64,000 bases of DNA from Chloroflexota bacterium (GTDB lineage: Bacteria; Chloroflexota; UBA11872; VXOZ01): assembly GCA_964291655.2 (NCBI GenBank), contig OZ219802.1, forward strand, positions 736,001 to 800,000, read 5' to 3'. The position numbers and the translations under genes were made by a program. Within the stretch, counting starts at the first letter, position 1; the number at the start of each line of letters is the position of its first letter. Under the pieces are notes generated by a model. It saw nothing but the letters and a program-made list of their open reading frames with translations. It was not told the origin of the DNA and ran no database searches. Positions 11,075 through 63,950 of the stretch are shown in pieces.

Positions 11075-11240
11075 CCGTTCGCGCTGAGCCTACCTGTCCT
11101 GAGCACTTCGACAAGTTCAGCGCAGGCTTGATGAAGGGTCGAAGCGCAAGAACTCAGAAGACCGTTCGTCCTTAGCAACGAAAATCTCTTCCTCTCCACC
11201 CATCGACATGCTCAGAGCCTGCCCCGTACTCGATTCAGCA
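11075..11240. repeat. Triple-nested REP-like element plus a second interrupted copy
   Basis: ccgttcgcgctgagcct[acctgtcctgagc[acttcgacaagttcagcgcaggc]ttgatgaagg]gtcgaagcg at 11075-11146; atgctcag|agcctgccccgtactcgat with junction at 11215/11216. Confidence 0.8.
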
Positions 11241-13071: not shown

Positions 13072-13119
13072 GTATCTAGCTTAGAGCGCGCCTCCGTTGC
13101 TAGAGATTGAGCCAAGCCA

Positions 13120-16027: not shown

Positions 16028-16992
16028 GGCCTTGCCTCACCAGGATGCGATGATTGCCGCGCCGCTTGCTGGTTGGACGTTGGCACGTCGCGATTCGGGT
16101 CACCCCTGGGTGCGTGATCCGCTTCTAACCCGGCCGGGGCGGGGGTACCGCCGCCCATCTCTCCGCGCTCCTCAGCGTCAATGCGACCGTCGCGCATGCG
16201 CACGATACGATTCGTGCGGCGCGCAATGTCCTCTTCGTGGGTAATGAAGACTACCGTGATCCCGCGGTCGGCATTGAGCCGCAGGAGCAGCGCCATAAGC
16301 TCCTCGCTGGTGCGCGAATCCAAGTTACCGGTCGGCTCGTCCGCCAGGATGATCGCGGGGTCGGTCACTAAGGCACGGGCAATGGCAACCCGCTGCTGCT
16401 GGCCGCCGGAAAGCTCCGTCGGCTTGTGTGACATGCGGTCTTCCAAGCCCACGGCAACGAGTGCCTCCCGCGCGCGGTTACGCCACTCGGCGCCGCCTCT
16501 TTGGAGCAATAGGTCTCGCGCGACTGCAACCCGCTGCTGGGCCCCGGATAGTTCGGGCGTCTGGTTGCCCGAGTGAAGTGTTGACTCGGCCCCTTGCAGA
16601 GACCGCTTCGCGGAGTCGCTCCGCTTATTGCCGCCCCCGTAGAGCAATGGAAGCTCTACCTGCTCCAACGCGCTCACGCGCGGCAGCAAATTGAAAGACT
16701 GGAAGACAAACCCAATCTTGCGGTTGCGTATCTCAGCCAAGCGATTGTCGTCAAGTGTGGCGACGTCTTCGCCGTCCAACAGATAATCCCCGGCATCCGG
16801 CCGGTCCAAGCAGCCAAGGATATTCATGAGCGTGGACTTGCCAGAACCGGAAGGTCCCGTGATCGCCAGCAAATCCCCCCGCTCAACGTGAAGAGAAACA
16901 CCGTCGAGGGCATGAATCTCAGAATCGCCCATCACGTAGGTCTTCCTGAGGTCTCTTGTTTCGATCACGCTCTCGCGCATGCAGTGCCCCAT
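16024..16992 (-). CDS. MacB/LolD-type ABC ATP-binding protein with internal duplication
   Basis: [35 protein letters not shown]; extra degenerate [13 protein letters not shown]. Confidence 0.95.
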
Positions 16993-17048
16993 CCTATCGA
17001 TGCATACCTAGAACTCATCTCATAGATACATCGCTCTGTGTAGATTTG

Positions 17049-17136
17049 CCCTTCGACAGGCCTGTACTGAGCTTGTCGAAGTGCTCAGGACGAACGGAAA
17101 AGGCATAAAACCGTTCGTGCTGAGCTTGTCGAAGCA
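17049..17136. repeat. Inverted pair of REP-like elements, left copy carrying a 23-nt insert
   Basis: cccttcgacag[gcctgtactgagcttgtcgaagt]gctcaggacgaacgg followed by ccgttcgtgctgagcttgtcgaagca. Confidence 0.85.
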
Positions 17137-17176
17137 CAAGTTGGCACGTCGATCTGTGTCGTGATTGCACGTCGCG

Positions 17177-19117
17177 CTACCGCGTACGGATGTCCACGGG
17201 GCCGCCGTCAATACTGCCGCCCGCCCGCGACGGCACGGCGACCTCCTCCCCTTCACTGACGCCGCTCACAATCTCCGACACTTCGCTATCGCGCACGCCA
17301 ATTACAACCACGCGGCGTTCCAGCTCATCGCCATCTCGTCGAACATAGACCACCCGCTCGTCACCCTCACGCCGTATGGCTCTATTTGGCACGAGGAGGA
17401 CGTTCTCGCGGCTCGATACCTCAATCATCGCGTTGGCAGAGAGACCGCCCCGCAGGCGTTGGCCGCCCGGCTCCAGTCGGATGGTAATGGGGAAGAGCAC
17501 GACGCCCTGCTCCGAGGTGGAAATTGGCGAGATGGTTTCCAACACGCCGGTAATCTTGACGTCAGGCGATGCATACGTATTGACAACCACCGGCTGGCCC
17601 TTCGCCACGGACTCCACGTCCGCCTCGTCTACCCGGGCGTGCATTTCGACCCGCTCCGTGCGCACCAATGTAACGACGACGGCTTCCGGCTTTTGTCCAA
17701 TGTTGCCCTCCACTGTCGCCACTACCCCGGCAAACGGTGCCCGCAAGGTGGCGTCCGCCAAGTCTTGTTGGGCCGTTTCCAAGCTTCGCTGTGCTCGCTC
17801 GACCTTCAGCCGTTCCAATTCAAGGTCCTGGGCGCTGGCGCCGGTGCGCTTATCCTGCAGGTCCAGGCGCTTGAGCTCCAGTTCATTGCGCGCCTTGGCC
17901 ACGTCCTCGCTCTTCGGCCCCTCCAGGAGTTCTGTCCGCCTGCGCTGGGCATTATCCAGGTTCAGCCGGGCGCTCTGCACTTCTCTTTCCGCAACCGTGA
18001 TGTCTTCCGCTGAGGGATTGAGCAAGGCATCAAGCCTATCCTGCGCGGCCGTAAGCGTCCGCATGGCACTGTCCACACTGCGCTGGGCCGCATGCTCGTC
18101 ATCCGTGACCGATACACTTGCACTATCGTACGAAAGCTGTGCCTCTCTCACCGCGCCCAAGAGTTCTCCCGCCTTCGTGCCCGACGGCGGGTTGGGCAGG
18201 AGTTGATCCGTCAATTTGGGGATCTCTACATCCACATCCTCTTTTGCCTCGTCGTACTTCTCTTGCGCGTCCTCTAGTGCCTGCTCGGTGAAGGTGTTAT
18301 CGAACTCTTCATCATCTTCTTTGGCTTCATCCAGGGCCTCTTCTGCATCCTCCAACTCATCGAGGAGCCTCGTAATCTCGTCCTTTATGCGCTCCCGCTC
18401 ATCGTGGTATCGGTTTCTTGCGATGAGGAGTGCATTGGCGGCCGCTTGCATCCTGGCCTCGCTGCCGCCGGCGCGCAGCGCATCCAGATTTTCCTGTGCT
18501 GCCGCCAGGGCTGATTCCGCGCTATTCACATCGTTGCGGGCTGCCGCGATGTCGCTTTCCTCGGGATTGCGCAAGGAGCCAAGCGCCTTCACGGCTCTAT
18601 CGTAGGCAACTTCGGCGCTAATTACGGCTGCTTCCGCATCGTTGATTTCGGATTGGGACGGGCCATCCAGCAGCTCGGCCAGCTTGTTCTCAGCGTCCAC
18701 AACCGCAATTTCCGCCGTCCGGATATCTTCCGGCCGTGCTCTCTCCAGCCTCTCTAGGTTCACCTCGGCAGTGCGCAAATCCGCTTCTTTTTCCTGCACC
18801 GCCACCCGGAGGTCGGTGTCGTCTATGGCGGCCAACGGGGCGTCTGCCGCCACCTCATCCCCAACAGCGACGAATATCTCACGCAGGTCTGCCGACGTGG
18901 AGAAACCGAGTCTCACTTGCTCCGGGTACACAATGCTACCGGAGGCGTTGACCGTGGTCATAATTGTCCCACGGCTCACCACCACGAATTCCGTCTCGGC
19001 GCTTTCTACGGCAGCGCCGTTAGAGTCGGTGAGGCGTGGCAATACGACGAACCTGCCAACAATGATGAGCGCTGCCACGATTACGATCAGCAGAGCGATC
19101 TTCTGCCATCTGGCCAC
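17177..19117 (-). CDS. Efflux membrane-fusion/periplasmic adaptor (HlyD/MacA/YknX-like) with very long helical hairpin
   Basis: N-terminal TM, V.VGDEV and LRAPFAGVV lipoyl halves, VDEADV, VLLVPNRAI, EIVSGVSEGE. Confidence 0.9.
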   Translation of the reverse strand: MARWQKIALLIVIVAALIIVGRFVVLPRLTDSNGAAVESAETEFVVVSRGTIMTTVNASGSIVYPEQVRLGFSTSADLREIFVAVGDEVAADAPLAAIDDTDLRVAVQEKEADLRTAEVNLERLERARPEDIRTAEIAVVDAENKLAELLDGPSQSEINDAEAAVISAEVAYDRAVKALGSLRNPEESDIAAARNDVNSAESALAAAQENLDALRAGGSEARMQAAANALLIARNRYHDERERIKDEITRLLDELEDAEEALDEAKEDDEEFDNTFTEQALEDAQEKYDEAKEDVDVEIPKLTDQLLPNPPSGTKAGELLGAVREAQLSYDSASVSVTDDEHAAQRSVDSAMRTLTAAQDRLDALLNPSAEDITVAEREVQSARLNLDNAQRRRTELLEGPKSEDVAKARNELELKRLDLQDKRTGASAQDLELERLKVERAQRSLETAQQDLADATLRAPFAGVVATVEGNIGQKPEAVVVTLVRTERVEMHARVDEADVESVAKGQPVVVNTYASPDVKITGVLETISPISTSEQGVVLFPITIRLEPGGQRLRGGLSANAMIEVSSRENVLLVPNRAIRREGDERVVYVRRDGDELERRVVVIGVRDSEVSEIVSGVSEGEEVAVPSRAGGSIDGGPVDIRTR

Positions 19118-19470
19118 TGAATTCTCTCCATGCGTTCACGCTGAATAGATTACTTGGATCTTCAGATTCGTGTGGCCTCGCCCGCTGCAATGCGCATCCT
19201 AGCGGCCAAGAACCACTGGGGAGAATATGCTACGCTAAACTCATTGTATCAATCTCACATGAGCGGTTGCCAGGACTGCTCGAGGCACCTACGAGCTGAC
19301 GCACGACACGCCATCATACGAATCCCCTATTCGAATCGTGCACGGTGTGTGAGTTCACTATTAACGAGTATAAGATGTAACTTGAAATTGTGCAAGTTCA
19401 TCTTTATTATTATGGCACTTGGCACCAACTATCTTTGACAATTACAACATAGTAATTTTGTACGGCGCAA

Positions 19471-30991: not shown

Positions 30992-31143
30992 CCGGTAGCG
31001 TAGGTTCGCACGGAGACGTGCGCGCAACCTGCGCCCAATTCCCACATTCGCCGCGCATGAGCGCCGGGAGGTTGAGAATGCAACCTGCGCCTGCTTCCCA
31101 CCATGTCGCGCATGAGCGCCAGTAGCGTAGGTTTGCAACCTGC
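30992..31143. repeat. Degenerate GTAG-type REP cluster
   Basis: gtagcgtaggtt...gcaacctgcg repeated, for example gtagcgtaggtttgcaacctgcg at about 31122. Confidence 0.6.
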
Positions 31144-31834: not shown

Positions 31835-31917
31835 TCTTCCAATCTTAGGCTTCTAGATGGACTGACGACTCGGCTCTTGCGCCGTCCCAAACCATTGCGG
31901 TAGCTCAACATCAACGG

Positions 31918-32000
31918 CGGAGGGGGAGGGATTCGAACCCCCGGACCTTTCGGTCAATGGTTTTCAAGACCATCTCCATAAACCACTCGGACACCCCTCC
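31918..32000 (-). tRNA. tRNA-Ser(TGA)
   Basis: GGAGGGG/CCCCTCC stem, ATGGT-CTTGAAA-ACCAT anticodon arm, GACC-GAAA-GGTC variable arm, GTTCGAATC; followed by CCG rather than CCA; TATAAT on the minus strand at 32019-32024. Confidence 0.96.
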
Positions 32001-44831: not shown

Positions 44832-45108
44832 CCTTTCGCACAGAGCCCGTCGCGGGGCGCGCTCACTCTCCGTTCACACTGAGCCCGTCGCAGTGCGGTC
44901 CAGCTGCCAGAGGCAGCGACCTCCCTCCGTTCGCGCTGAGCCTGTCGAAGTGCAGTCCAGCTGGCAGGCGGCAGTCACCCTCTGCCTCACGGACCCAGTC
45001 GCGGGGCGCGATCTCCCTCCGTTCGCGCTGAGCCTGTCGAAGTGCAGTCCAGCTTCCAGACGCAGCGATCTCCCTCCGTTCGCGCTGAGCCTGTCGAAGT
45101 GTGAACGG
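44832..45108. repeat. Tandem array of about 5 REP-like units (57-nt basic period) between convergent pyrF and uvrC
   Basis: ccgttcgcgctgagcctgtcgaagtg at 44927, 45019 and 45076; degenerate copies at 44870 and 44832; linkers related to each other. Confidence 0.88.
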
Positions 45109-48785: not shown

Positions 48786-48830
48786 GGCGAAAAGTCTGGC
48801 AGGTAAGCGGTCGGCATGCAAAGATGATTT

Positions 48831-48867
48831 AAGAAAGCGGGTCGCAAAACGGCCCGCTTTCTTTTCT
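48831..48867. terminator. Intrinsic terminator, possibly bidirectional
   Basis: aagaaagcgggtcg-caaaa-cggcccgctttctt-ttct. Confidence 0.8.
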
Positions 48868-48917
48868 AGCCTGGATTGCTTAAAGAGTGTTTGCAAAGGA
48901 GAGTAGGGCAGCACCAT

Positions 48918-49006
48918 CCGTTCGCCCTGAGCTTGTCGAAGGGTGAATGGAACCGCCGTAAGTTGGCCAATAACCGTTCATGCTTCGACAAGCTCAGCAC
49001 GAACGG
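48918..49006. repeat. Uninterrupted inverted pair of REP-like elements
   Basis: ccgttcgccctgagcttgtcgaagggtgaatgg ... ccgttcatgcttcgacaagctcagcacgaacgg. Confidence 0.88.
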
Positions 49007-49055
49007 TTCTTATCGCCTTTACAGGCCCCCCTCTAAGAAGCTCGCAAACTGGCTC

Positions 49056-57956: not shown

Positions 57957-58076
57957 CTAGCCTGTCGCACAGCACCCTGCGACAGGCTCAGCAAGATCGG
58001 CGCGTCATCAATCCCATTTGGCTTGAGTATTTCGGAGAGTTCACACGCTTCCGTTCGCCCTGAGCTTGTCGAAGGG
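57957..58076. repeat. REP-like elements
   Basis: agcctgtcgca..tgcgacaggct hairpin; ccgttcgccctgagcttgtcgaaggg at 58051-58076. Confidence 0.75.
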
Positions 58077-58140
58077 TGTATCCTTGCTAACGGATGGGAT
58101 AGAGCAGGAGACTCTCAGGTCTAAGGCGGGAGGCGCGACC

Positions 58141-61539: not shown

Positions 61540-61764
61540 AGTGCGCACGCGCCAATAGGGCGCGAAGTGCTGGGCAAGAGTGAGGCGCTGCCGCTTAGTC
61601 GCGGAGCCCGCCAATGGAATAATGCCTGTTGAGTGGCAAGTCAGACGTATCCGACTCTTTCGCGCCTGCTAGCGGCGTGTTGTCCTCCCTCGCTCCTTTT
61701 TTTACCCCACCTCCTGGAATCCCTACTGCCCAAGCGGCCCCTGCCGGGCCTGAAGTCAAAGGGT

Positions 61765-62039
61765 CGTCACTCCGGCGAGAGCCGGAGTCCAGACAACAAC
61801 CGGCGGAAGAGAAGATGGATTCCCGCCTACGCGGGAATCACCATGGCCTTGCCCAGGCCGCACAAGGGAATGAAAGTGAGTTCCGATATCTCCGTTCGTG
61901 CTGAGCACTTCGGCAAGCTCAGTACAGGCTTGTCGAAGCATGAACGGAGAGATGAGTGTCGCAAGCTCTTAACCGCTTCCGCCGCTCACCCTTCGACGAT
62001 GCTCAGAGCCTGCCCCGTACCGGATACGGGGGCGAACGG
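61765..62039. repeat. Composite repeat cluster: CGTC-type REP pair plus two interrupted REP-like elements
   Basis: cgtcactccggcgagagccggagtccag / tggattcccgcctacgcgggaatcac; ccgttcgtgctgagc[23 nt]ttgtcgaagca; cccttcgacgatgctcag[24 nt]ggcgaacgg. Confidence 0.85.
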
Positions 62040-62087
62040 CAAGACCGCTTGTTTTCATGGCAATGACGAGCGCACGCGCGCTGATGG

Positions 62088-63575
62088 TTATGGCCGCCTA
62101 TCCGGCACCACGTGGCCTTCCGGGTTCGGCCACTGGAATGAGCCCTCTTGCATGTTTTCCAGAGCGCTCAGCACCGTTTGCGGGCCTTCTTGCGCCACTT
62201 TCTTCAACGGATCAGGCCAGCCCTGGAGTTGCTCCTCTTCCCACTGCCAGAGGTGGTATTCCAGGTCCCGCGTGACTTCGACGTTTGCATCCGCCACGTT
62301 GGCTTCCTCACGCGGATCGTTGGCCAGATCAAAGAGCTGAGTCAGCGGCCAGTTCATCAATCCGCCGTGGTAGCTCTTGGTAAGTTTCCAGTCGTGACCA
62401 TCGGCGGCGCCGATGGTGCGGATCGCCCGTTGCGCCGACCATAGGCCATGCTCCAAGTACACGTAGTCGCGTCGCGGCTGCGGTTCCGGCTCGCCGCGCA
62501 GCATCTCCAGGAGCGAGCGTCCCTGCCACTTCGCCGGCGCATCGAGACCGGCGACCGCGCAGAGCGTGGGACCCAGGTCTAAGGTGTAGCTTGCGGCATC
62601 CACCACCGTCTCTGGTCGGATCCCACCACTCGGCCAGCGGGCGAGCATCCAGATGTGGGCATCGGTCTCGTAGACGCCCCAGTGATCGCCGTAGACGCTG
62701 TGTTCGCCTTGATTCTCGCCGTGATCGGTAGCGGCAATGATGAGGGTATCATCCAGAATACCTGCTGCCTCTAACGCATCCAGCAGCCGCCCGACGTACT
62801 CATCGCAATAGGCGATCTCCGCATCATACATCGCCATCCAGTAATCGAAATCTTCCTTGCCCCGGATGCGGTGCGAACCGGCGGAGTTCGGCATATGAGC
62901 GTAGCGCTCGGCGTCATCTTTGATCCGCTCGTCGGACGGCCAGTCAGGCGGCGGGTAGGTAAGCATCTTGTCCACATACGCTTGCGGCGCTTTGTACGAT
63001 TGGTGTGGGTCCCAGTAGTGGACGTAGAGGAAGAAATCGTCCTGCGCGTGGTCTTGCAGCCAAGCAAGAGCAGAAGCCGTGATCTCCGGCGCTTCCACGT
63101 TGCTATGCCCCAAATGCCACTGCGGACGGTAGTACGCATTCCAGCCCATGCGGAACCAGGGTGCCTGGTCGCCGAACGTCGAGACCGCCGCCGTACGCAA
63201 GCCTGCCTCCCCCTTCTGCTCAGCCAGATACTGCTGCACCTGCGGCGCGCGACTGCCGATGGGAGGAAACGTCGGTCCAGCGTAGCGGGTATCTTGCTCC
63301 CAAGGCTTGGTGTCCAATTCGCCTGCCGGCCGTCCATAGTCGCCGACTATCTGTGCCCTCTCGCCGTGCGTGAGCAGTCCGGTCTTGATACCCCAGCGAC
63401 CGGTGAATATGCTCGCCCGCGCGGGCACGCAGGGCGTATCAGCGGCGTACATGTTAGTAAAACGCGCGCCTTCCCGCGCCAGCCGGTCAAGATGCGGCGT
63501 CGTCGGCCGCTCGTAGCCATAGCAGCCCAAGTGATCGCGGCGCAGGGAATCAATATCGATGTAAAGTACTTTCAT
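62088..63575 (-). CDS. Formylglycine-dependent sulfatase family protein
   Basis: DIDSLR.DH, CxPxR motif TPCVPARASIFTG, YWDPH, TDHGE, LFDL..DP.E. Confidence 0.93.
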   Translation of the reverse strand: MKVLYIDIDSLRRDHLGCYGYERPTTPHLDRLAREGARFTNMYAADTPCVPARASIFTGRWGIKTGLLTHGERAQIVGDYGRPAGELDTKPWEQDTRYAGPTFPPIGSRAPQVQQYLAEQKGEAGLRTAAVSTFGDQAPWFRMGWNAYYRPQWHLGHSNVEAPEITASALAWLQDHAQDDFFLYVHYWDPHQSYKAPQAYVDKMLTYPPPDWPSDERIKDDAERYAHMPNSAGSHRIRGKEDFDYWMAMYDAEIAYCDEYVGRLLDALEAAGILDDTLIIAATDHGENQGEHSVYGDHWGVYETDAHIWMLARWPSGGIRPETVVDAASYTLDLGPTLCAVAGLDAPAKWQGRSLLEMLRGEPEPQPRRDYVYLEHGLWSAQRAIRTIGAADGHDWKLTKSYHGGLMNWPLTQLFDLANDPREEANVADANVEVTRDLEYHLWQWEEEQLQGWPDPLKKVAQEGPQTVLSALENMQEGSFQWPNPEGHVVPDRRP

Positions 63576-63628: not shown

Positions 63629-63950
63629 TGTCATTTCGAGCGCAGCGAGAAATCTAGAACTCCATGCACTCCAGTGGTTCAACAACTTAGTCCTAAAGCA
63701 TAGCCGAACTTAGCGCGATACCTCGATAACGTCGCGTACGGCGCAGGTCGCAAACATGTCCTGAGCACTTCGGCAGGCCTGTGCTGAGCCTGTCGAATGG
63801 CCTGCGCTACCGGATGCCTGGCAGCGACCCCAGGGTCCGCGCCATGTATCAGCACTCCGCCGGTCACATCGTAGCGCGGGGGCTTGTCCCCCGCCTGGAA
63901 TGGAACCTAATGCGCTGAAGCCGATAGATTCCCGTCTACGCCGGTATGAC
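63629..63950. repeat. Composite repeat cluster (CGTC-type, GTAG-type and nested modules)
   Basis: tgtcatttcgagcgcagcgagaaatct; gcgcaggtcgcaa[...]cctgcgctac; gtagcgcgggggcttgtcccccgc; tagattcccgtctacgccggtatgac. Confidence 0.8.

Follow-up and report, generated by a model that had tools for sequence, protein, structure and literature searches.

A 23-nt module gained or lost as an exact unit at a fixed position of dispersed repeats in a Chloroflexota genome

Introduction

Mobile DNA of 20-30 nt has, to our knowledge, hardly been studied, and the one described case that we know of, that of the cyanobacterial SDRs in 2008, is still without a mechanism. In that year Elhai et al. reportedly described the families SDR1-8 of Nostoc punctiforme, dispersed repeats of 21-27 nt that are nested in other repeats as well as in themselves. 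The SDRs are said to be non-coding, to be present or absent at orthologous loci and to be confined to one cyanobacterial group; their mechanism was reportedly unknown, and an RNA intermediate is said to have been proposed. Here, we describe a 23-nt module, designated M, in a stretch of 64,000 nt from the genome of a Chloroflexota bacterium (contig OZ219802.1, positions 736,001 to 800,000 of the forward strand; hereafter the window, with positions counted from its first letter). Several orthologous loci, in several host classes, show the gain or loss of M as an exact unit, at one fixed position of a 15-nt core that is shared by otherwise unrelated repeats. With the SDRs, as these are reportedly described, M has in common its size (23-24 nt), its many copies, its exact presence or absence at orthologous loci, its nesting in itself and its lack of coding; on the same description it differs from them by a far wider taxon range and by a defined 15-nt target that M carries itself. 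Likened in this way, M is the same kind of thing as the SDRs, which are its closest known parallel, without being a member of the families SDR1-8.

Elements of the IS200/IS605 type make no target duplication, are gained and lost exactly at a fixed target, and involve hairpins, and M resembles them in these traits. Like these and like miniature inverted-repeat transposable elements (MITEs), M is non-autonomous and multi-copy; unlike them it measures 23-24 nt and has neither terminal inverted repeats nor two end hairpins, and no parent element was found. As for REP repeats, we know of none that is said to take up 23-nt guests at one fixed position of its loop. It is the hosts of M, and not M itself, that resemble REP and REPIN sequences (PMC3116915), being short intergenic palindromes that often form inverted doublets (in the window at 17049-17137 and 48918-49006). 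REP families are normally lineage-specific, whereas the core of M is common to several phyla. The SRM/NTS hairpin repeats, associated with Ssn GIY-YIG single-strand nucleases, are conserved across phyla in tens to hundreds of copies, and the role described for Ssn is that of a nuclease affecting transformation, not of a system for insertion (Chenal et al. 2025, PMC11893778). As presented there, they offer a precedent for conservation across phyla by way of a travelling sequence-specific protein; the core and M differ from SRM in that they do not fit the motif printed there (GTCWY start; a comparison by eye) and do not flank the GIY-YIG genes of the genome studied here.

Results

Module M and its target core

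The genome under study (G000; two contigs, 3.47 Mb, 59% G+C), to which all C1 and C2 coordinates refer, was compared with a relative (G008) that is about 96% identical to it in the region of the window. The sequence of M is GCCTGTRCTGAGCYTGYCGAAGT, extended to 24 nt by a leading A in one host class, and has no coding capacity. Searching the window for the copy GCCTGTACTGAGCTTGTCGAAGT at up to 3 mismatches gave three matches, all of them intergenic, against 0 in 100 dinucleotide shuffles; genome-wide, 41 copies at up to 1 mismatch were found in G000 against 0 for the reversed pattern. A preliminary description of the window had placed M at 17060, at 61907 (1 mismatch) and at 11105 (after ctgagc), had given the points at which the hosts are split, and had listed empty hosts at 17111, 48918 and 58051. 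All these sequence statements hold, and the empty hosts are confirmed (Table 1). On the plus strand at 61907, M separates ccgttcgtgctgagc (61892-61906) from ttgtcgaagca.

M occupies one fixed position of the core, CTGAGC^YTGYCGAAG (the caret marks the junction), and is always inverted relative to the core that it splits. The 15-nt core, CTGAGCYTGYCGAAG, occurs 370 times in G000 at up to 2 mismatches, compared to 5-7 times for shuffled 15-mers. Its carriers are otherwise unrelated and comprise F elements, with CCGTTCGnn arms, which form self-hairpins or inverted doublets; the C-type, a direct 23-mer (GCCTGTCCTGAGCYTGYCGAAGG) that is itself placed at CTGAGCYT^GTCGAAG; the larger T element, of the form ..GTTGCAAACGTGTC-core-GGCCTGCGCTACC; the Y context, in which a hairpin insert follows GCTCAG; and M itself. 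All 34 of the 34 G000 copies assigned to this context read CTTCGRCAR^M^GCTCAG, in host classes F, C, T, Y and A. Two- and three-level nests are found because M itself carries the core, so that each insertion offers a fresh target on the opposite strand. Module-in-module nests lie at C2:281165, 846958, 911655 and 2090444, and the triple nest of the window (Table 1) is filled in G008 too (L025) and is therefore older. The rearranged module pair at 63763-63810 would be such a module-in-module nest minus 24 nt, probably deleted between two CTGTCGAAG direct repeats.

Among the 143 pairs of F left and right arms in G000, the loop is empty in 69 (4-5 nt between CTGAG and TCGAAG), measures 27 nt in 14 (6 with inverted M, 8 with the direct C-type) and contains a 14-nt palindrome of the GGCTGCGCGAAGCC type at CTGAG^CYTG in 6; the remainder are arrays and deeper nests. 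The core may be drawn as the tip of a hairpin, in which the pairs C-G and U-A, tandem G.A/A.G and the pair G-C close a 5-nt loop CYUGY, and M would enter this apical loop. Once M has been inserted, the left half of the host is predicted to pair with the 3' half of M. For the doublet at 17049-17137 a DNA fold predicts that 17083-17097 pairs with 17111-17125.

Table 1. Module M, its hosts and related features in the window.
Feature	Position	Strand	Remarks
Module M, GCCTGTACTGAGCTTGTCGAAGT	17060-17082	+	Inverted relative to host core
Module M, 1 mismatch, TTGCCGAAGT variant	61907-61929	-	Inverted in host
Module M, 3 mismatches	11105-11127	-	After ctgagc of inner module, itself within host
F-class host half, read on + as cccttcgacag	17049-17059	-	Right half, split by M; minus-strand host ccgttcgtcCTGAGC^CTGTCGAAGggc; joined directly to 17083-17097 in G008
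F-class host half, read on + as gctcaggacgaacgg	17083-17097	-	Left half, same host as 17049-17059
Empty F-class host, ccgttcgtgCTGAGCTTGTCGAAGcac	17111-17137	+	Inverted partner of the filled 17060 host, REPIN-like doublet
F-class hairpin host, left half, ccgttcgtgCTGAGC	61892-61906	+	Split by M at 61907
F-class hairpin host, right half, TTGTCGAAGcatgaacgg	61930-61947	+	Split by M at 61907
Second F-class host of the 61807-62068 composite	61989-62039	-	25-nt hairpin insert agcctgccccgtaccggatacgggg (62007-62031) after gctcag in G000; M at cgacaa^ in G008 (L023)
Triple nest	11075-11147	+	F host (11075-11091, 11138-11147) containing direct C-type module (11092-11104, 11128-11137) containing inverted M (11105-11127)
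Doublet of two empty F hosts	48918-48950, 48974-49006	+, -	Whole doublet absent in G008, spacer filled by other repeats
Empty F host, ccgttcgccCTGAGCTTGTCGAAGggtg	58051-58078	+	
T-class host, rearranged module pair ACTTCGGCAG + GCCTGTGCTGAGC + CTGTCGAA..	63763-63810	+	Equals C2:799777

Filled and empty hosts at orthologous loci

At the orthologue of 17060, G008 has the same host doublet with its left host empty (cccttcgacag|gctcaggacgaacgg) and is exactly 23 nt shorter, while the two genomes hardly differ otherwise in both host halves and about 100 nt of flanking sequence. Contigs from other samples (runs X5, X6, X7 and X9) were also compared, and parts of a locus without cover in a single run were not counted as evidence. 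The contig of run X7 that spans 16700-17500 is a net 23 nt shorter (the position of the gap within this span is not reported), and in runs X5, X6 and X9 contigs contain M at 17060 or extend into it. In G006 the doublet is kept, with a 46-nt array of 14-nt-type palindromes at the same place, and in G001 and G012 both hosts are absent.

The flanks of all 42 M copies of G008 were mapped onto G000. Twenty-four copies are filled in both genomes (one rearranged and one degenerate in G000), and four face an empty G000 host: the gap is exactly 23 nt at L032-2919 and L037 and a net 24 nt at L017, and L011 lies within a tandem array. The G000 host has other content in two cases (L023 and L036), and the whole host element is absent in G000 in three (L026, L027-536 and L034). 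Two copies lie in tandem arrays that are not resolvable (L016 and L019), and seven are without colinear anchors. In the reverse direction, three of the G000 copies that have no G008 counterpart were traced (17060, 61907 and the inner copy at C2:2090444), with about 14 others left out. G000 has a 24-nt module nested in a module at L032-2700, where G008 has the outer module only. In the orthologous G008 host of 61907, the 14-nt palindrome GGCTGCGCGAAGCC, one base to the left, replaces M. Over about 48.6 kb aligned between the window and G008, the indels of at least 6 nt inside alignments number three, i.e. the 23-mer, the replacement at 61906 and a 20-nt tandem unit, and two of the three are at M sites. 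These comparisons show that gain or loss affects M as an exact unit, at several orthologous loci and in several host classes.

The preliminary description had also allowed M to be read as a 21-nt insert with a GC duplication. Such a reading can be applied to 17060, whose junction leaves 2 nt ambiguous, but it does not generalise: 13 of the 34 G000 copies carry an extra A before M, giving a 24-nt unit without ambiguity, and five have ACTCAG or TCTCAG in place of GCTCAG on the right. Overall, 0-2 nt of the junction are ambiguous (in the 24-nt form none) and no terminal inverted repeats are found in the 23 nt, at variance with a MITE.

For two polymorphic loci outgroups were inspected, and the hosts were found in G000 and G008 only, other relatives being without them. 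The polarity of the events, insertion or excision, is not fixed by outgroups because the hosts at polymorphic loci occur only in these two genomes. One further copy, L015-518 (C2:~1334690-1334720 versus G008 C19:81717), has its 5' half reverse-complemented in G000 relative to G008. Small inversions of this kind are typical of strand switching in quasi-palindromes.

Some differences between G000 and G008 in the window concern other repeats. The 20-nt tandem unit, ATCAACGTACGTTGCAGGCA at 19470, has one copy more in G000 than in G008. The spacers 31010-31135, 13078-13118 and 48792-49055 differ wholesale between the two genomes, being filled by different repeat families (ccggtagcgtaggtttgcaacctgcg type and ctccctctccctgggggagagg type).

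Independent entry and copying of composites

We scored insert positions 7, 14 and 17 together with host class in the 34 G000 copies, using contingency and permutation counts in place of trees, for which 23 nt are uninformative. Haplotype ATT is shared by classes A, C, F and one other, GCT by A, F, T and Y, GTT by A, C, T and one other, and GTC by A and T. The host classes share nothing past the 15-nt core, and M therefore entered each of them at least once. The alleles at the junction (host R by insert Y) number GT 19, AT 24, AC 14 and GC 9, which equals the product of the margins and is thus independent. Among mispairs between host half and module half no strand-specific wobble asymmetry of G.T versus A.C was found (19 v 14 in G000, 13 v 20 in G008, 6 v 15 elsewhere).

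Copying of larger units was observed as well. The three copies of the TTGCCGAAGT variant (61907, C2:661591 and C2:814305) have the same host arms; a composite of about 230-260 nt, 90% like the window at 61807-62068, is present in G008 and missing at the orthologous G000 site (L034); and tandem arrays of filled units vary in copy number (L043). Insert haplotypes are associated with the class of their host (mutual information 0.836, reached in 1 of 5000 permutations, p = 0.0002), and the extra leading A is found in 8/8 T-class hosts and 0/11 F-class hosts. This association attributes part of the spread to composites that were simply copied. Gain of the unit and duplication of whole composites thus both take place. 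The preliminary description had argued for recurrent site-specific insertion rather than copying of a single composite element. Its first half is supported, as recurrent gain or loss of the unit, by the filled and empty orthologous hosts, by haplotypes that recur in 2-4 unrelated classes and by the independence of the junction alleles; the wording "rather than" was too strong, given the class-haplotype association, the shared arms of the TTGCCGAAGT copies and the composite at L034. By the counts that stood in for trees, the filled copies do not form one clade in which host and insert co-vary.

These same data could be taken to mean that M is immobile, filled hosts having spread as whole composites and the empty orthologues being slippage-type deletions of M. 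The class-haplotype association and the uneven distribution of the extra A would fit such a history, as would the composite found in G008 only, the differences in copy number of filled-unit arrays, the outgroups that cannot polarise the events, and an imprecise 10-nt remnant in G000 at L036, where G008 carries a nest. We consider it unlikely. Classes F, C, T, Y and A share the 15-nt core alone, which requires at least one entry of M into each, and every clean case would need an exact deletion, yet the direct repeat flanking M is 0-2 nt. At L037, where the G000 host is empty and the G008 host holds M plus a separate hairpin insert of about 57 nt after GCTCAG, two inserts would have to be removed exactly. 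The different occupants of one orthologous host among close relatives, and the independent assortment of junction alleles, argue against it too.

A further possibility is that the hairpins act as signals in RNA or DNA (as terminators, as stabilisers of mRNA or as binding sites for proteins) and that the forms with M are selected structural variants. The intergenic position of all three window copies, the conservation of the core across phyla and the stability of the filled hairpin at 61889-61949 (fold energy -19.5 kcal/mol, z = -5.9) speak for this reading. However, host halves and module halves show no covariation, with Watson-Crick pairs in 33/68, as under independent assortment. Rfam gave no match either: in the 64-kb window two tRNAs alone reach the gathering score, and at permissive thresholds nothing credible was found in 61780-62080. 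Together with the complete absence of the elements at orthologous loci of most relatives, and a copy number that ranges from 2 to 42 inside one genus, this makes selected signals a highly improbable explanation.

Other occupants and forms of the host repeats

The 14-nt palindromic module of the GGCTGCGCGAAGCC type, found in both orientations and in tandem arrays, sits at CTGAG^CYTG, a single base left of where M enters; its sites in G000 are C2:863132, 2600797, 1578020, 2220985, 2379952 and 499298. A third guest is a GC-rich hairpin insert (agcctgccccgta..tacgggg, 25 to about 57 nt) that follows GCTCAG of F hosts and is likewise present or absent at orthologous loci, as at window 62007-62031 and G008 L037 (C34:~31890-31950). 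F left arms also form arrays with a period of about 22-25 nt (longer in the window) that close with a single right arm (C1:798760-798920, C2:863057-863150, C2:2458477-2458560 and window 44879-45100). These arrays look like serial partial duplications of the 5' side of the hairpin.

Distribution of M and its core

M was found at up to 1 mismatch in 17/17 genomes of the genus, with 2-42 copies each (41 in G000 and 42 in G008) and 0 for the reversed-pattern control. In a phylum sample of 7 genus genomes and 194 other genomes, M is present in 7/7 of the former (8-42 copies) versus 8/194 of the latter (1-2 copies each). The core is found in 44/61 genomes of the class and reaches 45-268 copies per genome in 16/16 genus genomes. 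The ratio of M to core differs widely among genus genomes, from 2/153 in G010 to 41/165 in G000, which suggests lineage-specific activity. M behaves as a guest with lineage-specific success, and its hosts are more widely spread than the guest.

At least 119 loci in a collection of species genomes (596 Gb) match the module pattern exactly, where about 0.14 are expected by chance from the information content of the pattern. Among the matches listed, record titles name Bacteroidota isolates of Sphingobacterium, Chryseobacterium, Flavobacterium, Mariniflexile and Arenibacter, and titles of metagenome-assembled genomes name Cyanobacteria, Planctomycetes-type, Patescibacteria, Nitrospinales, Latescibacterota, Verrucomicrobia-type and others. 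M is again multi-copy in Bacteroidota, Nitrospinales and Latescibacterota, and five distant genomes contain 14-21 copies each at up to 2 mismatches (control 0). The context CTTCGRCAR^M^GCTCAG accounts for 30 copies among the at least 119 matches, as listed from other genomes, and some copies in other phyla stand in direct orientation in GTCAY-type hairpins. Core and M are near-invariant across phyla, while the surrounding stems vary by lineage. Inverted-repeat flanks around M in other phyla, with a stem of at least 6, were found in 3 of 28 rows scored (83 copies listed) versus 0.9 expected (shuffle maximum 4), which is not significant. Viral contigs gave 0 exact matches to the module pattern.

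In a complete flavobacterial genome (G027, L169-L186) M lies in the middle of a repeat of about 125 nt, ..ATGAAACGAGCATG..AATAGCGAACAGCAT[M]ATGACC..ACACATGAAA, which ends right before the apparent start codons of downstream genes and contains most of the 20 copies shown. No Rfam match to this repeat was found at permissive thresholds in 10 loci.

Candidate enzymes and parent elements

The single gene in G000 for a REP-associated tyrosine transposase (RAYT) is at C2:2523379-2524059 (-) and matches NF047646 with 82.2 bits (cut-off 80). We rejected it as the mover of M, because a cognate gene would be flanked by F or M and the neighbours of this one are three copies of another hairpin repeat. These are three tandem GC-rich hairpin repeats (gcgggcgagacgcccgc..), 100-200 nt upstream, and are presumably its own REP. 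The corresponding domain, PF01797, was found in 16/17 genus genomes, the exception being G009, which is 95% complete, has 18 copies of M and gave no match; it was found in 2/5 of the distant genomes with 14-21 M copies and not in the other three. M thus differs from REP/REPIN-RAYT systems in that the RAYT gene is flanked by another repeat and Y1 was not found in 3/5 distant genomes that contain M (PMC3116915).

G000 also holds an SRM/Ssn system. It has 62 SRM-like hairpins of the form ATTCCC-N8-GGGAAT, one of them inside the composite of the window at 61819-61838 and another at C2:1259728, and three small single-domain GIY-YIG open reading frames (ORFs) at C2:1259810-1260028, C2:1711914-1712132 and C1:823705-823920, each flanked by its own variant of the SRM-like hairpin. 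No F core lies within 700 nt of these three genes. The sole high-copy long repeat, a DDE-transposase element of about 1.3-1.9 kb, was rejected as a parent insertion sequence, since its ends are unrelated to M; it occupies about 45 or more G000 sites (e.g. C1:64872-66693), flanked by another short repeat family, ctccctctcc..gggagaggg. ORFs with cores on both flanks amount to 24 candidates. In text searches of the literature no paper was found with the core, the module or its halves (matches were unrelated primers only), and none with the six peptide strings that the repeat would encode. On the features tested, M is not a member of the REP-RAYT, SRM-Ssn, MITE or Rfam groups.

Discussion

We favour a mechanism in which M is transferred at the DNA level by copy-choice between a filled donor hairpin and an empty recipient hairpin, guided by the core, and put its probability at about 0.5. 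M would be copied by template switching or short-patch conversion while the hairpins are replicated or repaired. Having copied CTGAGC of an empty core, a strand would pair with the GCTCAG that follows M on the right in a filled donor, would then copy M and the donor CTTCGRCAR, and would return to its own template via that 9-nt match. The shared halves of the core, 9 nt (CTTCGRCAR) and 6 nt (GCTCAG), would provide the guidance, so that an enzyme encoded by the element would be unnecessary, and the insertion site would be fixed because the shared homology ends there. The patchy occurrence across phyla could reflect the horizontal arrival of a filled element in genomes already rich in empty cores. 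Copy-choice of this kind reproduces the junctions, and it would explain why the site is fixed and M inverted, how occupants come to be exchanged at one apex, and how the small inversion and the repeat-mediated deletion arose. We count in its support the unrelated occupants of one host apex in close relatives (61907 and 17060), as well as the half-inverted copy L015-518 and the deletion form at C2:799777, which look like products of slippage or strand switching. The failure to find a linked enzyme and the 0 matches in viral contigs were also counted in its favour.

Several observations weigh against copy-choice. The usual need of RecA-type conversion is for longer flanks than those available, since at 17060 the best donors match over 11 nt to the left and over 7 nt to the right (15 if one mismatch is allowed). 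The association between host class and haplotype ascribes part of the spread to composites. Many copies in other phyla are outside the core context, and at least those entries need another route. The near letter-perfect conservation of core and M across phyla is not explained by copy-choice and points to a sequence-reading factor or to a function. Precise excision would yield identical patterns of presence and absence. Finally, a bias with respect to the replication strand was not demonstrable, the cumulative GC skew of the two-contig assembly being too weak to place the origin and terminus.

Part of this is better accommodated by a trans-acting, sequence-reading enzyme, i.e. an HUH/Y1 enzyme, a single-strand nuclease of the Ssn kind or a new family, which would cut the apical loop of the 15-nt tip and join M to it, and whose gene would spread horizontally. 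Such an enzyme would account for a core and an M that hardly change while the stems differ by lineage, for a distribution that takes in all 17 genus genomes, is sparse in the rest of the phylum sample and is again dense in distant phyla, for the variable ratio of M to core, and for exact gain or loss with neither duplication nor footprint; it would also cover the copies of M outside core contexts. The SRM hairpin repeats, which are conserved across phyla together with the Ssn nuclease, provide a precedent (PMC11893778). No candidate gene was found adjoining F or M, however, though no systematic scan for genes associated with the repeats was made, the RAYT and the three small GIY-YIG genes being flanked by other repeats, and PF01797 occurs in just two of the five distant genomes that contain M. 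The 23 nt of M are, moreover, too short for the two end structures that known Y1 transposases need. We therefore regard an enzyme of this kind as possible, and hold to it only tentatively. Doubtful, in our view, is the bolder proposal that core tip and M make up a horizontally spreading mini-element system of many phyla, moved by an enzyme that cuts CTGAGC^YTG. With its self-renewing target and fractal nests, such a system would be among the smallest site-specific mobile DNAs and would constitute an undescribed class of mobile DNA.

Three other schemes were rejected. Hairpin opening of the P-nucleotide type brings out the inverted halves in the wrong order, the junctions are not obtained by target-primed reverse transcription, whichever strand of M serves as template, and steric reasons make a full pseudoknot implausible, as its linker of 1 nt would have to cross a 9-bp stem.

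M looks like one of the smallest mobile DNA elements. Its nests generate intergenic indels at the level of strains, interrupt short-read assemblies (in X5 and X6, contigs stop within M) and produce spurious ORFs; one probable example is the open frame of 235 aa at 61633-62340 (+), which crosses the repeat composite of the window. The locus at 17060 is clean material for further work, as it offers an exact filled and empty pair at an orthologous site in genomes that are 96% identical. Further assets are the 15-nt target that M carries itself, the several independent host classes and the alternative occupants of one hairpin tip. As copies are also present in genomes recorded as named culture-collection strains (e.g. 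Sphingobacterium allocomposti DSM 18850 and Mariniflexile), the question of what moves a 23-nt element becomes testable at the bench.

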